Made by a program: the position numbers
Assembly: GCA_029974275.1 (NCBI GenBank)
Contig: JARKSN010000312.1
Span: 1-54,598, forward strand
Reading direction: 5' to 3'
DNA: 54,598 nt
From: Candidatus Hydrogenedentota bacterium
GTDB lineage: Bacteria > Hydrogenedentota > Hydrogenedentia > Hydrogenedentales > SLHB01
In this document: positions 40,901 through 54,598 of the stretch, in pieces
Position numbering within the stretch: the stretch's first letter is position 1
Layout: each line of letters opens with the position of its first letter

Positions 40901-43900
40901 CGTGACGACATGCCCCTCCTTCGTGATAATCACCCCGCTGCCGCTGGTTTCATCCTTGATCTCGCGCCCGTCCGAATAATTCGCCTCAACCACCTGAATG
41001 CGCACCAAAGCCGGCTTCACCCTCGCCACCGCCTGTTCGGTCGACGCCTGTTCCAGCCCCTCCTCCTGCGCAACAGCCCCCCAGACACACCCCCAAAACA
41101 CAACAACGCCCCACATGCCGCGATACGCACACCGGGGAACCATGTTCATCGGAATCTCCTTCCCTATGCAATGGGCCGCGAAACTTCTCGTCGATCGCCC
41201 CATTCGAGCTTGCGCGCCATTTCACGCAAATCGGCTCGATTATCGACACCCTCTCGTTGACTGTCAAGGACCGTCAAGGCGATCGCTCCCATTCGGTTGA
41301 ACGGACGACCTGTCCCCCAAACGTTGGCTGGTTGACATACGGCGTGGGCGATGCTAGCGTTTACCCGGGCTTTGGCGCTTGATGTCGGCAATTGCACGCG
41401 TCCATGAAAGCGCCCCAAACCTTGTGAAAAGAGCAAGGAGTTGTTGTCGCATGATTTCTTTTGGCATCGTCGTAGCCTTCGTGGCCGAAATCGTCGCCTA
41501 TTCCCTGCTGTGCGCGATCCTCTGGAAAATCCACCTGTTCGGCATGCCGATCGGAGCCGCCGCAGCATCACTTGTCACCCTGATCCTCGCAGCGCGCGCG
41601 GCGATCGCGCCGCTCTCATTCGCGGCCGCATGGCTTTGGGGAACGCCTCGTCCTCTCGAACTGCGTCTTCGGTGGCCGCGCGCAATCGCCATGGTGGCCG
41701 CGGAAACCGGGGCCTTTCTCATTGCCATATTTTTACTGATGCCCTTTGCCCGCCGCTTGACCCTGCAACGCCGGGGGCACGTAAGCGCCACATCGCAGCC
41801 GCCGGTTCTATTCCTCCATGGGTACGGCGCCAATTCGGGCGTATGGGCCCCCATGCTGCGATCCCTGTCGGCTCGGGGAGTCGCCAACCTTTTCACCATC
41901 GACCTGGAGCCCCGCTTCGGCAGCATCGATGCACACGCCCAGCAAGTCGCCGCCCTTGTCACGCGCCTATGCAGCACGACACGATCCCCAAAAGTCATCC
42001 TCGTAGCGCACAGCATGGGCGGCCTGGTCGCCCGCGCCTACGTCGAACGCTGCGGCGGAACGTCCCGCGTCGCCAAAGTCATCACCATCGCCACGCCGCA
42101 CCACGGCAGCCTTTTGGCGCGCTTCGCCCCAGGCGCCAACGGAGCCCAGATGCGCCCAGGCAGCGCCTGGCTCGACGATCTCAACCGCGAAGAGAACACG
42201 TCCCACGATGTGCGCTACGTCTCTATTTACAGCGCTCACGACAACATGGTGGTTCCCTATGCGAGCGCCGAACTCGGCAAGGCCCGCAACATCCTGTTCC
42301 CGGCTCGCGGCCATTTCGACCTCCTGTTCTGCAAGGACGTCGGCCAAATCGTCTACCGCGAACTGACCGGTCACTAAACCTCCAGACGGCCCGGCGGCGC
42401 AGCGCGCAAGCAAGTGGCGGACATCGCGGCGATTTGCTATACTGCGCTCGGATCGGGGCGTGGCGCAGCCCGGTAGCGCACCTGCTTTGGGAGCAGGGGG
42501 CCGCTGGTTCAAATCCAGTCGCCCCGACCATTTTCCTTTCTTAAGAAATTCTCTTCCTCAAGAACCTGCCCGTACCCCTTTTCACTGAACAGTCCCACGT
42601 CTCAGGCTTTGTCTGTGCCCTTTTCCTGATGTGCGCTATTTACCGCCTCCCGCCTGCAAGCACACGCCCTTCACCGGACGGTTACGGTGATGCAAAGGTC
42701 GAGGAGATCGTGGTCAAGACCTTGGAGAGCAAGCCGGAGAACGCCACGCAGTGGAGCACGCGCCTCATGGCGAAAGATACGCAGGTTTCGCAAAACACGA
42801 TCGTCCGGATATGGCACGCCTTCGGCTTGAAGCCACATATGGAGGAGACGTTCAAACTTTCCAAAGACCCGTTCTTCATCGAGAAGGTGCGCGATATCGT
42901 GGGTTTGTATATGGCCCCTCCGGACAAAGCGGTGGTTTTGTGCGTTGACGAGAAGTCGCAGGTTCAGGCCTTGGACCGAACACAACCGTTGTTGCCGATG
43001 TCGCCGGGTTATCCCGAACGCCGATGTCATGACTATGTCCGCAACGGGACAACCTCCTTGTTCGCCGCACTGGACGTCGCCACGGGCGAAGTCATCGGGA
43101 AATGCCACCGGCAACACCGCCATCAGGAATTCCTGCAGTTCCTTAGAACGATTGAGTCCGGTGTTCCTCAAGGGCTGGACGTGCATCTGGTCATGGACAA
43201 CTACGGCGCCCACAAGACGCCGAAAATCAAGAATTGGCTTGCCCGGCGCCCGCATTGGCACGTTCACTTCACGCCGACCGGGACGTCGTGGCTCAACATG
43301 GTGGAACGATTCTTCGGCCAACTCTACCTCAAACTCCCGCGAGGTCATCCCCACGCCTGCGCCATGCGCGCCGCGCTGGCATAGACCATCCTTGCCGACC
43401 GCATACACCCACAACGCCACCGGGACCGCGAGCCCCGCGCCCCCGCCATAACGACTCGCCAGAGCCACGGTTGACCCCAAAGCGTCGCGACAAACCCACA
43501 CAACGACTCCATGCCCCACACGAAAGCCGCCACTCACCTCTTGCCCGGCGATTTGGGATGTTGAGCATCGTTGAACCCTGCCCGGTCGAGACCGTAAGCT
43601 CAGTGACGCCAACGAGTGCAATTAGATGCGAGGCACAGTATGTATCAACGCGAGTCCATTCTGAATGTCCTGGTTGTGGATGACGAGATCAACATCCGCA
43701 AGACGCTCTCCGTATGCCTCGATATGGACGGCCACCGGACAATTGCCGTCAGCAACTTTCAGGACGCGCTTGCAGAGGCGTCTCGTCGGTCGTTTGATAT
43801 TGCTTTCCTCGATCTGCGCTTGGGCGCTGCGAACGGAATGGATCTCATCCCGGCACTGCTATCGTCGGCGCCGTGGCTCAAGATCATTGTGATCACAGCG

Positions 43901-52900: not shown

Positions 52901-54598
52901 AGGCATCGCAGAAAATATGGGAACGCGAGCAATTGGGATCGACCTTTTTCAACGAAGGAGTGGCCTTCCCGCATGCCCGCCTGGATGGCTTGGCTTCACC
53001 TCGGCTCGCGCTAGGTCTGACGCGCCATGGCATCGTGGATGTAACGACGGAACAGCCTATCGAGTCCGTCTTTCTGATTCTGACCCCGGCGCAATCGCCC
53101 ACGGCCCAGCTTCAAATGCTGGCACTAACGAGCAAATCTGCGCAAAATCGCCATTTTCTTCAGCGTCTGCGATCCGCACCGACACCGGACGCCGCCATGA
53201 AGATCATCGAGGATTGGGAGCGCATGCGCGAAGACATTGTCCCATAGTGCAACACAGCGGGTCTCTCCCCACTCCACCACAGCCGATCGCCGCCGTCGCC
53301 CAAGAACGCCACGCGCGCGTGCGCCGAGCGCCGTGAGGATATCTTTGGCGCTCACATCGCCTGCAACGCGCTGGATCATCCGTTGGCCTTCTTGCGCGCA
53401 GATCACGTCGTAACGTGTGCCTGGGCAATCCGTACGGTTCGGGCGTTTGGCTCGTCGGCCTAGCCACGGAAGGCGTCATTGTGCTACCGCACGCGCCGTT
53501 TCGTCAACTGCCGACTTGCCTCTCAACAAAACTACCTGACGGGTTTGGGCGTTTTGCCCTCCACGGAAAACGCGGAGGCAGGTCATGAGGTTGGCCATGT
53601 AGAACGCAAGACGTTGACGAAGGCGCTGGCGAATCGTATCGGCGCGGCCGCAGGGGATCGTCTTGGACCCGCTCGTGAGCGCGACGATCCTGCGGCGTTG
53701 GCTGTTGGCTGCCATACGACGAGCGGGTCCTCGCCTCCCGTTTGGGAACTCATGGGCTATCCCGCGGGCAAAGCCCTGATCCCAGAAAACTTCTCGCGTT
53801 TCCGCTCTCTTGCGATGCAGCTTGCAGGCGCGCCCAGTAAACATGCATCAGGGCGTCTTCTCGCCGAAGACGCCCTGATGTTTCGAAGAAACAATCGCCT
53901 GAGAAACGTTTACGGGATGACTTTGACCGTCCGTGTCACCACCGCCGCGGAGTTGTTGGAGCTGTCTTTCACGGCATACTTGACGGTGTACGTGCCGACT
54001 GCGGCCGTGTTCACGGTGCTTGTCGCCACGGTGTTCGCCGTGATGTCGCCGTCGTAGTTGTCCATCGCCGTCGCGCCCGCATCGACATACGCGGCGCCGA
54101 CATGCAGCGTGATGGGCGTCGTGCCGATCATCGTGATGACCGGCTTGACCTTGTCCACGACCTTGATCGTGCGCTTGGCCGTGGCCGTGTTGTTCGAGGA
54201 ATCCTTCACCGTGTAGGTGATGTAATACGTGCCGACGACGTTCGGGTCTACGGAGCCCGCCATGACGATGCTCGCGGTCAGATCGCCGTCATAGTTGTCC
54301 ATCGCCGTCGCACCCGGCTCCGTGTAGGCGTCGACGAGCACGTTGAGCGTCATCGGGTTCGTGCCGAGCATGGTGATCACGGGCTTGATCTTGTCCACAA
54401 TCTTGACCGTGCGGATCTTCTGCGCGGCGACGTTGCCCATCGAGTCGCTGACGTTGTAGTAAAGGTAATACGTGCCGACGACGTTCGGATCGACCGATCC
54501 CGTCACGACGATGTTGGCGGTGATGTCGCCGTCGAGATTGTCGATCGCGGTCGCGCCGGGATCGCTGAACGGCGAGAAAACGCTCAGCGTAATGCCGC

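Follow-up and report, generated by a model that had tools for sequence, protein, structure and literature searches.

How is a potassium pump controlled when its operon closes with a KdpD that has no histidine-kinase core and ends in a PTS EIIA domain? The question is raised by the window analysed here, the whole 54.6-kb stretch of a Candidatus Hydrogenedentota contig, on the + strand of which the genes for a response regulator (RR), a membrane histidine kinase (HK), a 27-aa peptide, KdpF, KdpA, KdpB, KdpC and the fusion protein follow one another. The operon comprises the HK gene, the peptide ORF, kdpFABC and, last, the fusion gene. The hydrophobic 27-aa ORF (47021–47104) overlaps the HK stop codon (ATGA) and is conserved outside any known family: it has no match in Pfam or NCBIfam, and, counting ATG starts only, 21 of 62 loci have a similar peptide ending in ..ACER[LIF] before kdpF. 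It is followed by kdpF (47110–47190; Pfam Potass_KdpF, 4e-6; TIGR02115, 3.9e-5, just below cut-off), of which 52 of the 62 loci have a counterpart, kdpA (47201–48934; Pfam KdpA, 3e-232; TIGR00680, 724 bits, above cut-off), kdpB, encoding the P-type ATPase (48944–50962; TIGR01497, 1073 bits), and kdpC (50974–51567; Pfam KdpC, 1e-68; TIGR00681, 216 bits).

The fusion gene (51571–53247), directly 3' of kdpC, translates without a stop into 558 aa. Pfam places a KdpD domain at residues 18–227 (51622–52251; 2.4e-92) and a PTS_EIIA_2 domain at residues 408–548 (52792–53214; 5.6e-17) and finds no HisKA or HATPase_c; transmembrane (TM), GAF and His-kinase parts are absent. The KdpD N-domain scores 308.5 bits against PF02702 (cut-off 26.1) and matches PDB entry 2r8r at 2e-68. 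Next comes a Usp-like domain (residues 246 to ~375; 52306–52695), for which the Pfam match (246–346; 1e-4, 23.3 bits) lies just below the 24-bit cut-off; in the AF2 model strands alternate with helices over residues 245–372, and PF00582 is precomputed for some relatives. Residues 376–400 (52696–52770) form a variable linker, predicted to be disordered (pLDDT below 50), that is gappy and unconserved in an alignment of 34 fusion-family sequences from several phyla; unfused orthologues stop here. Pfam and the translation therefore bear out the first-pass annotation in its description of a KdpD, a Usp-like part and an EIIA domain with no His-kinase core.

That annotation had also called the protein a "kinase-less" KdpD, which no longer holds. 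The KdpD N-domain is reported to be an atypical serine kinase of KdpB with Ser162 as its target, and mutagenesis has shown that its Walker A/B motifs are needed for this phosphorylation (PMC11018627). All 34 aligned fusion-family sequences keep Walker A (G27-x5-G33-K34-T35), Walker B (D106-E107) and R187 unchanged; where E. coli has the aromatic Trp39, the fusion has Tyr36 and the family Y, W or F, also C or H. The putative substrate is encoded two genes upstream: KdpB has TGES at 152–155, its Ser155 being the counterpart of E. coli Ser162, and DKTGT at 300. Serine-kinase activity is described for homologues, among them a short KdpD/Usp protein of Deinococcus geothermalis that phosphorylates E. 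coli KdpB (PMC11018627), and by analogy the N-domain of the fusion may be active as well.

The protein has the features of this short KdpD/Usp class, of which D. geothermalis Q1J2K3 is an example ("KdpD domain, Usp domain"; Silberberg et al. 2024, PMC11018627): a soluble PF02702 domain with its Walker A/B residues, then Usp, with no TM, GAF or DHp-CA and no second KdpD. PF02702 has a single match in its genome, the fusion is also the sole KdpD-domain gene in 3/3 other genomes tested, and DUF4118 has no match at cut-off in its own genome (the best, 23.6 bits, lies inside an unrelated PAS-HisKA protein). Serine-kinase-only KdpDs are reported to keep their gene position directly after kdpC (PMC11018627), as the fusion does, and KdpE is missing from the species in both cases. 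NF038185, the NCBIfam "KdpD-like non-kinase potassium sensor", aligns residues 8–371 to model positions 7–369 of 373 (9.4e-107) with 357.5 bits, below its cut-off of 550, and lacks the EIIA part that the fusion has; the canonical sensor kinase model NF007793 reaches 364.6 bits against a cut-off of 1123 and is covered over positions 11–379 of 895 only. What sets the fusion family apart is some 180 extra C-terminal residues, made up of the linker and an EIIA domain with an invariant His. The census in supplement file 4 of PMC11018627 places a 581-aa family member from Syntrophorhabdus aromaticivorans in the KdpD/Usp class, and "PTS" and "EIIA" occur in neither the text nor the searched supplements of that paper. 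The literature that we searched held no description of a KdpD–EIIA fusion, so the conserved fusion is apparently undescribed so far, with the EIIA tail as its new part.

Could the fusion be an artefact of assembly or gene calling that runs a short kdpD together with a ptsN-like neighbour? All that speaks for this idea is that the contig comes from a MAG, and we regard the idea as having next to no chance of being right. With residues 385–558 as query, we retrieved 525 proteins at E≤1e-5, confirming that the family is large. Among the best 120 of these, 112 carry both PF02702 and PF00359, and 8 (307–361 aa) carry PF00359 without PF02702, which reproduces the earlier count; the eight look like cut gene calls, because seven come from contigs no longer than 3.6 kb and the eighth (P0143) starts exactly at the fusion's Met247. 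All 80 loci that a search of species-representative genomes yielded have the full-length architecture in one continuous frame, complete chromosomes and the cultured S. aromaticivorans UI among them, which places the fusion beyond chance. None of 10 unfused loci has, within ~6 kb, a separate EIIA gene from which a false fusion could have arisen, and we consider the artefact refuted.

The tail is nevertheless an optional input module, since close orthologues (67–74% identity) lack it and members with and without it intermingle on a tree. In one order, 29 of 36 KdpD-bearing genomes carry the unfused form; the core function must therefore be able to do without the tail.

What kind of EIIA domain is it? 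All four PDB matches are PtsN proteins (3urr at 1.7e-11, 4gqx, 1a6j and 2a0j), and the best NCBIfam match is the PtsN model TIGR01419, at 50.9 bits against a cut-off of 138.7 (fruA, 46.6). In the HMMER alignment with chain 3urr (..ph.r..), His468 (codon 52972–52974), part of the motif GVAFPHARL, falls on the histidine of that PtsN protein, as expected of a phospho-acceptor, and H468, P467 and R470 are invariant in 34/34 sequences. We therefore call the domain PtsN-like, although it is the C-terminus of a 558-aa kdp-operon protein and not a stand-alone PtsN of ~150–165 aa. Stand-alone PtsN is classically encoded by the rpoN operon; in this genome rpoN lies on a different contig from the kdp operon.

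The partners that such a domain would need are present, in agreement with the first reading of the genome: one HPr gene, one adjacent EI gene (in whose product an N-terminal GAF extension is not visible) and three further EIIA_2 genes. EIIC proteins of PF02378, PF03609 and PF03611 were not found in a genome estimated to be 100% complete, and the PTS therefore looks permease-less and regulatory. HPr occurs in 21/21 fusion-bearing genomes of the phylum and in 7/7 of a second order. It is also near-universal in both taxa sampled (131/135 and 61/61 genomes), and none of the 29 genomes that carry the unfused form lacks it, so that its presence is a necessary condition only, uncorrelated with the tail.

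A reading that we consider improbable is that the tail is a pseudo-EIIA, an unphosphorylated module for ligand binding, dimerisation or docking, with the kinase regulated through the Usp domain or elsewhere. It would suit a domain that reaches the curated cut-off for neither PtsN nor FruA and a tail that, in a single orthologous family, has seen about three losses or gains. The Usp input could be c-di-AMP, for example, as in D. geothermalis: the genome encodes a DisA-type diadenylate cyclase, and c-di-AMP can drive short KdpD/Usp proteins, for which it is the input reported (PMC11018627), whereas we propose a PTS input for the fusion family. By eye, C249, S251 and N256 of the fusion fit the Firmicute c-di-AMP motif (A/G/C)xSxSx2N(Y/F) (PMC8214093), unlike the positions of the second Ser and the Y/F; this decides nothing, because the D. 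geothermalis protein, again by eye, also lacks the motif. Against a pseudo-EIIA, a His with flanking P and R that is invariant across several phyla is hard to explain without phosphorylation, and EI and HPr are always present.

Who, then, controls transcription of the operon? The locus has neither a KdpE-type gene nor a KdpD-type His-kinase, as the first-pass annotation had said, and its further suggestion that control proceeds without a KdpD/KdpE phosphorelay is right as far as that relay goes; another relay, the RR/HK pair, is present at the locus. The RR (43640–44989; ATG start) is of NtrC type, with a receiver, a sigma-54 AAA+ domain and a Fis-type HTH (Pfam Response_reg, 6e-23; Sigma54_activat, 3e-63; HTH_8, 5e-6) and GAFTGA at residue 231, counted in the ORF from 43616. 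The HK (45180–47024) is not of KdpD type: it consists of TM, 4HB_MCP, TM, HAMP, PAS, HisKA and HATPase_c, and its ATG start is probable, as most orthologue tblastn matches begin at residue 55–62 of the long ORF. Between the two genes lies a predicted sigma-54 promoter (−24/−12, TGGCAC-N5-TTGCA; 45130–45145), which the probable HK start follows at a distance of 35 nt; it is the sole zero-mismatch TGGCAC-N5-TTGC match in the window. A predicted activator site, the perfect palindrome TTGCA-N3-TGCAA (45024–45036), stands 106 nt before the promoter; a second, weak candidate (45056–45068), with 3 mismatches and the TGCAA half only, matches poorly and agrees in position (−74) with the second site of related loci.

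It had been left open whether this pair is unrelated to kdp, a doubt that comparison with other loci removes. RR orthologues (59–81% identity) lie upstream in 56 of the 80 loci and HK orthologues (46–71%) were seen in 66, many of the missing ones being cut by contig ends; RR paralogues in four genomes reach at most 43% identity. At a score of at least 9 of 11, 50/56 loci have the promoter motif in the interval from the RR to the gene that follows it (background 0.098 per kb per strand). Palindromes with no more than 2 mismatches number at least one in 44/44 promoters examined and at least two in 39/44, clustering at about −110 (42) and −80 (34) over a background of 0.39 per kb. This conservation of the pair with the fusion, together with the conserved promoter and its upstream palindromes, marks the pair as the probable kdp regulator and the RR as the predicted activator of the downstream operon.

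Desulfovibrio vulgaris Hildenborough DVU3339.1–DVU3334 offers a parallel (Rajeev 2011, PMC3333781; Kazakov 2015, PMC4641369): there DVU3334, a sigma-54 RR, is reported to regulate its own kdp operon, which likewise combines a non-KdpD HK with a separate KdpD-N/Usp protein and no KdpE. According to its sequence row in the PMC11018627 supplement, that KdpD-N/Usp protein has no EIIA tail, whereas the fusion has one. The present locus resembles a DVU3334-type operon in having a sigma-54 RR with GAFTGA at the operon and a −24/−12 promoter with upstream sites. The order of the genes in D. vulgaris is unlike the present one.

Rajeev et al. read DVU3335/DVU3336 as one split kinase (PMC3333781), and a similar reading has to be weighed here, namely that the fusion assists the co-operonic HK as an accessory subunit and tunes phosphorylation of the sigma-54 RR. 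KdpD-N/Usp, EIIA or both would bind the HK, and the state of the PTS would then act on kdp transcription, on the model of free dephospho-PtsN acting on E. coli KdpD. HK and fusion remain adjacent despite reordering, in the orders R-ABC-H-D (4 loci), ABC-H-D (2), H-D (2) and R-H-D (1); the HK thus directly precedes the fusion in 9/80 loci, at least five of them apart from the usual kdpABC, and L054 and L074 have, next to the pair, a second, divergent kdpABC with its own short KdpD. These nine loci fit an HK partner at least as well as they fit the serine-kinase reading. Set against this, kdpFABC lies between HK and fusion in 49/80 loci, the HK is not KdpD-like, and HK orthologues look no different in the 10 unfused loci inspected. 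We think the HK-subunit reading rather unlikely; it is compatible with a serine-kinase role, and the two could go together as they do in E. coli with its tandem KdpD.

The reading that we prefer, to which we would give about an even chance from the sequence evidence, is that the fusion is a PTS-gated KdpB serine kinase with EIIA as an optional input, while the RR/HK pair and sigma-54 serve transcription. The RR, its phosphorylation set by the co-transcribed membrane HK, would bind the palindrome or palindromes and activate the sigma-54 promoter in place of KdpD/KdpE. The soluble short KdpD would phosphorylate KdpB at Ser155 of TGES and so switch off KdpFABC pumps that the membrane already contains. 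The permease-less PTS would pass a phosphoryl group on to His468, from EI through HPr to the EIIA domain, and the phosphorylation state of this residue would set the strength of the inhibition, coupling K+ uptake to PEP/energy or to carbon–nitrogen state. The anatomy, the conserved residues, the promoter with its palindromes and the distribution of the family are observed, and serine-kinase activity is known from homologues; that His468 is phosphorylated, by which donor, and whether this raises or lowers kinase activity is inferred. The AF2 model (pTM 0.43, linkers disordered) gives no structural hint of how the EIIA domain acts, packing it without confidence on either the kinase or the Usp domain. 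A stronger version, in which His468 is a true phospho-switch that depends on HPr and toggles Ser155 phosphorylation, possibly acting on the neighbouring HK too, is possible and held only tentatively.

How does this compare with the PtsN control of KdpD known from E. coli, Rhizobium/Sinorhizobium and Pseudomonas putida? A PtsN-type EIIA with a phosphorylatable His and a Kdp regulator as partner are common to both, and in rhizobia a ptsN2 gene is reported inside the kdpDE cluster (PMC13104625). In those systems, however, the interaction is described as non-covalent, with the DHp domain of full-length KdpD in E. coli and its GAF domain in S. fredii, and it is KdpE phosphorylation that changes (PMC9239096, PMC8534201); here EIIA is covalently attached to the N-domain/Usp half, and the hosts are not Proteobacteria. 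The proposal that the fusion is a Rosetta stone for that interaction stands in that KdpD and EIIA are joined in one protein, and it falls short in that the PtsN-docking domains DHp and GAF are missing; because of the missing domains, it applies at the protein level only. Joint action of the PTS and the KdpD module on Kdp remains a reasonable idea.

If the stronger version, with His468 as a true phospho-switch, is right, a permease-less PTS would govern a P-type ATPase at the post-translational level, by way of a His- to Ser-phosphorylation cascade within one polypeptide. The link between PtsN and potassium would then be older and wider than the proteobacterial PTS-Ntr, and it could work through the N-terminal half of KdpD, which has so far not been thought of as a target. 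For the organisms that carry it, the EIIA add-on may tie potassium uptake to the state of cellular metabolism.

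The gene that follows kdpC is an uninterrupted open frame (51571-53247, + strand) for a protein of 558 residues, in which Pfam recognizes a KdpD domain (residues 18-227, 2.4e-92), a sub-threshold Usp match (246-346) and a PTS_EIIA_2 domain (408-548, 5.6e-17). The first-pass annotation had described it as a kinase-less KdpD joined to an EIIA(Ntr) domain, and the Pfam search indeed returns neither HisKA nor HATPase_c. Among NCBIfam models, residues 8-371 match the "KdpD-like non-kinase potassium sensor" at 357.5 bits against a cut-off of 550, and the best match of residues 404-548 is PtsN, at 50.9 bits against 138.7. 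Sequence comparison with solved structures relates the N-domain to the KdpD N-domain 2r8r (2e-68) and the C-terminal domain to PtsN only (3urr, 4gqx, 1a6j, 2a0j), with His468 aligned to the active-site histidine of these structures. An AlphaFold2 monomer model (pLDDT 72.6, pTM 0.43) contains three folded domains and disordered linkers at 225-243 and 376-400; their mutual arrangement carries no confidence and provides no usable inter-domain geometry.

Our main reading, which we hold with roughly even confidence, has two layers. Transcription of kdp would be driven by the histidine kinase (HK) and sigma-54 response regulator (RR) encoded upstream, and the fusion, as a short KdpD (a soluble protein of KdpD N-domain and Usp-like part), would control the pump post-translationally as a serine kinase. 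Phosphorylation of His468 through HPr would set the output of that kinase, whether upward or downward. We aligned 34 family members, whose identity to the protein of the window is 57-77%. In the kinase part, the glycines of Walker A, Lys34, Thr35, the Walker B pair Asp106-Glu107 and Arg187 are invariant; invariant residues of the EIIA domain include Trp416, Glu453, Thr458, Phe459, Glu462, Pro467, His468 and Arg470; and residues 376-405 are gap-rich and show no conservation. A tail that is purely structural and never phosphorylated is hard to reconcile with the invariant His-Pro-Arg site, and we consider it improbable.

The genes 5' of the fusion encode, in order, the NtrC-type RR (43640-44989), the HK, KdpA, KdpB and KdpC, the neighbors that the first-pass annotation had named. 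The HK most likely starts at ATG 45180 within a long open frame (45000-47024), because most orthologue tblastn matches begin at residue 55-62; 190 nt then separate it from the RR stop at 44989. At 45130-45145 (+) lies the sole perfect match to the sigma-54 promoter consensus in the whole window, TGGCAC-N5-TTGCA, and 106 nt 5' of it a perfect palindrome, TTGCA-N3-TGCAA (45024-45036, +). The RR carries GAFTGA, and RpoN is encoded in the genome. Between the HK stop and kdpA we found kdpF (47110-47190, +; PF09604, 4e-6) and, just 5' of it and overlapping the HK stop, an open frame for a hydrophobic peptide of 27 aa (47021-47104, +). This peptide belongs to no Pfam or NCBIfam family; one resembling it (..FFGLCxLYAxACER[LIF]) is found at the corresponding position in 21 of 62 related loci from several phyla, counting ATG starts only, and it may be a further small Kdp subunit or an operon leader peptide. 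Since there is no space for a further promoter region, HK, peptide, kdpFABC and fusion look like a single sigma-54 transcript, with the RR gene just 5' of its own target. No terminator was found 3' of the fusion gene in 53150-53600. Directly 5' of the RR gene lies a DDE_3 transposase remnant with an HTH (42629-43384, +), which agrees with the patchy distribution of the entire module over several phyla. Elsewhere in the window (39110-41260), two open frames of ~700 aa overlap almost completely on opposite strands, the one on the + strand without a Pfam family.

The fusion gene, located by the first-pass annotation, is real and conserved: a scan of species-representative genomes yielded 80 loci, each with a full-length fusion (matches over about residues 4-550), in Hydrogenedentota, Omnitrophota, Acidobacteriota/Aminicenantes, several Thermodesulfobacteriota orders, Deferrimicrobium and the cultured Syntrophorhabdus aromaticivorans UI. 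Gene order was read by tblastn of the window's proteins on the same strand upstream (identity at least 55% for RR, 42% for HK, 30% for KdpA, 50% for KdpB and 35% for KdpC). With R, H, A, B, C and D for RR, HK, kdpA, kdpB, kdpC and the fusion, the order R-H-A-B-C-D holds in 49 of the 80 loci, R-A-B-C-H-D in four, A-B-C-H-D in two, H-D in two and R-H-D in one; two more have odd orders. The remaining 20 are cut forms (BCD, ABCD, CD, HABCD) that mostly stop at a contig end, the exception being locus L083, in which 5.5 kb upstream hold neither RR nor HK. HK and fusion stay adjacent in rearranged loci, which favors an action of the fusion protein on the HK. We regard this role as the main rival explanation, about half as likely as our main reading and compatible with it. 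A complex prediction for two copies of the HK transmitter (370-614, HK taken from Met61) with the EIIA domain (401-558) gave a score of 0.00 (mark 0.32) and no call either way.

By sequence identity, the RR is a true orthologue class: four genomes each hold exactly one copy at 66-70% identity, all paralogues reaching at most 43%, and in three of the four it lies elsewhere, outside the fusion locus. A -24/-12 motif with a score of 9/11 or better stands between RR and the following gene in 50 of 56 loci, against a background of 0.098 per kb per strand. Our palindrome survey covered 44 promoters, namely the window's and those of 43 motif-bearing loci; the other seven (L027, L039, L040, L059, L062, L066 and L090) were excluded for a promoter match that is weak or distant from the next gene. 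At least one TTGCA-N3-TGCAA palindrome is present in 44/44 promoters and at least two in 39/44, with clusters near -110 and -80.

Some loci carry additional genes. In two Aminicenantes loci (L033, 2105-3364; L045, 1984-3315), RR and HK are separated by an inserted gene for a protein of 419-443 aa, whose start resembles a signal peptide. The gene stands behind its own copy of the sigma-54 promoter, and the product may form a channel in the outer membrane under shared control with Kdp. Deferrimicrobium-like and related loci hold, also between RR and HK, a conserved gene for ~150-240 aa whose product is probably secreted (L034, 3476-3973; L039, 1853-2509; L059, 2989-3609; L067, 2781-3509; similar in L066, 2630-3073). 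At two further loci (L054, 12803-21022; L074, 11331-17185), a second, divergent kdpABC adjoins the HK-fusion pair, with KdpA identities of 37% and 60%, respectively; it has its own short KdpD without an EIIA tail (46-50% identity), so that Kdp regulatory proteins of two types are encoded next to each other in these genomes.

Among 135 genomes of the window's phylum, 21 have the fusion (its match cut or split by contig ends in G005, G013 and G110), five have a classical KdpD frame of 906-945 aa and none has a short untailed KdpD. Among 61 genomes sampled from the order of a Syntrophobacter MAG, seven have the fusion and 29 a short form that stops near residue 375-390. Over the part they have in common with the window's protein, these short forms show 67-74% identity to it, matching or exceeding the closeness of the fused proteins. 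Ten unfused loci that we inspected show the same module of RR, HK, kdpABC and short KdpD, and in none of these 16-kb stretches does an EIIA-like gene (E<=1e-6) lie beside it. A maximum-likelihood tree built from the region common to both forms (34 fused and 12 unfused rows) shows them interleaved. It requires no fewer than three tail changes (bootstrap range 3-4), although the well-supported branches by themselves demand a single change. This makes the tail an accessory module, acquired or lost on a few occasions within one orthologous family. Presence of HPr did not discriminate as a correlate of the tail, as HPr occurs in 131/135 and 61/61 genomes of the two samples.

The window's own genome (estimated 100% complete, 3.6% contamination) encodes a single KdpD domain, that of the fusion, and in three other genomes tested the fusion is likewise the only gene with this domain; no KdpD-type membrane domain scored above the cut-off in the own genome. 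EI and HPr are encoded once each, in adjacent genes, and no EIIC permease of three main families was found, so the PTS looks purely regulatory. Besides the fusion, three proteins carry EIIA_2: a stand-alone one of 150 aa (best score FruA-type) and two on contig C75, in which the domain is combined with a C4 zinc ribbon (327 aa; locus L003, 1333-2316, +) or with HTH_17 (232 aa; locus L004, 1441-2139, -), the latter a possible PTS-controlled DNA-binding protein.

A search with fusion residues 385-558 returned 525 proteins at E<=1e-5, and the earlier tally was reproduced: both domains occur in 112 of the best 120, and EIIA only in the other eight. Seven of the eight lie on contigs of at most 3.6 kb. 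The eighth, P0143 (313 aa, 159-kb contig), was considered as a natural split Usp-EIIA form and rejected as a truncated gene call, starting at the internal Met247 within the conserved DQVMVCLSS; we read all eight as cut gene calls. A search of representative genomes with the EIIA part gave 3945 proteins at E<=1e-3, of which 225 reach E<=1e-10 and 17 reach E<=1e-30; many of the top matches are short fragments in which the domain is terminal, and they yield no further insight into architecture. Another database protein, P0064 (907 aa), combines 4HB_MCP, EIIA, KdpD and E1-E2_ATPase; genes were probably merged in calling on its 5-kb contig, and the architecture is probably not real. Family members are named "PTS sugar transporter subunit IIA" or "sensor histidine kinase KdpD", and neither name suits them.

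Much of this design has precedent. Silberberg et al. 2024 (PMC11018627) showed the N-domain of KdpD to be an atypical serine kinase, which acts through KdpB-Ser162 to inhibit KdpFABC; the window's KdpB has TGES at 152-155. The same paper finds KdpD/Usp-only proteins mostly in species that lack KdpE, their genes staying downstream of the pump genes, and reports that the Deinococcus geothermalis protein is stimulated by c-di-AMP, and that E. coli KdpFABC is a working substrate for the short KdpD of another species. Its census classes the 581-aa S. aromaticivorans member as "KdpD domain, Usp domain", and neither "PTS" nor "EIIA" appears in its text or the supplements examined. The own genome encodes a DisA-type diadenylate cyclase; a c-di-AMP motif (PMC8214093) was discarded as a test, being by eye partly present in the fusion and absent from the c-di-AMP-responsive D. 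geothermalis protein. Desulfovibrio vulgaris has a kdp operon that is bound by its own sigma-54 regulator, DVU3334, and that encodes the HK separately from a KdpD-N/Usp protein (Rajeev et al. 2011, PMC3333781); Kazakov et al. 2015 (PMC4641369) filed it under potassium uptake. PtsN, mostly when dephosphorylated, is described as binding KdpD at its DHp domain (E. coli) or its GAF domain (S. fredii) (PMC9239096, PMC8534201), and ptsN2 lies within a rhizobial kdp cluster (PMC13104625). The "Rosetta stone" of the first-pass annotation holds only in that the covalent KdpD/PtsN-like fusion is real; with respect to the interaction in E. coli it is not a strict one, since the fusion family lacks the docking domains described for that species. 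We found no description of a natural KdpD-PtsN fusion in literature whose coverage leaves subscription-only papers largely aside. Operon design and short KdpD are of known kinds; the PtsN-like tail is apparently a new, undescribed variant whose regulatory meaning is plausible and readily testable.

One protein and its operon bring together three separately known things: PtsN acting on Kdp, the KdpD N-domain as a KdpB serine kinase, and the sigma-54 control of some kdp operons. Were the tail inert, it would be a mere domain-architecture curiosity on an already known regulatory design. If the histidine switch is true, the family, which has a cultured host in Syntrophorhabdus aromaticivorans UI, would add the N-terminal half of KdpD to the targets of PtsN and would offer a soluble single-chain system for how the phosphorylation state of the PTS reaches the Kdp pump.
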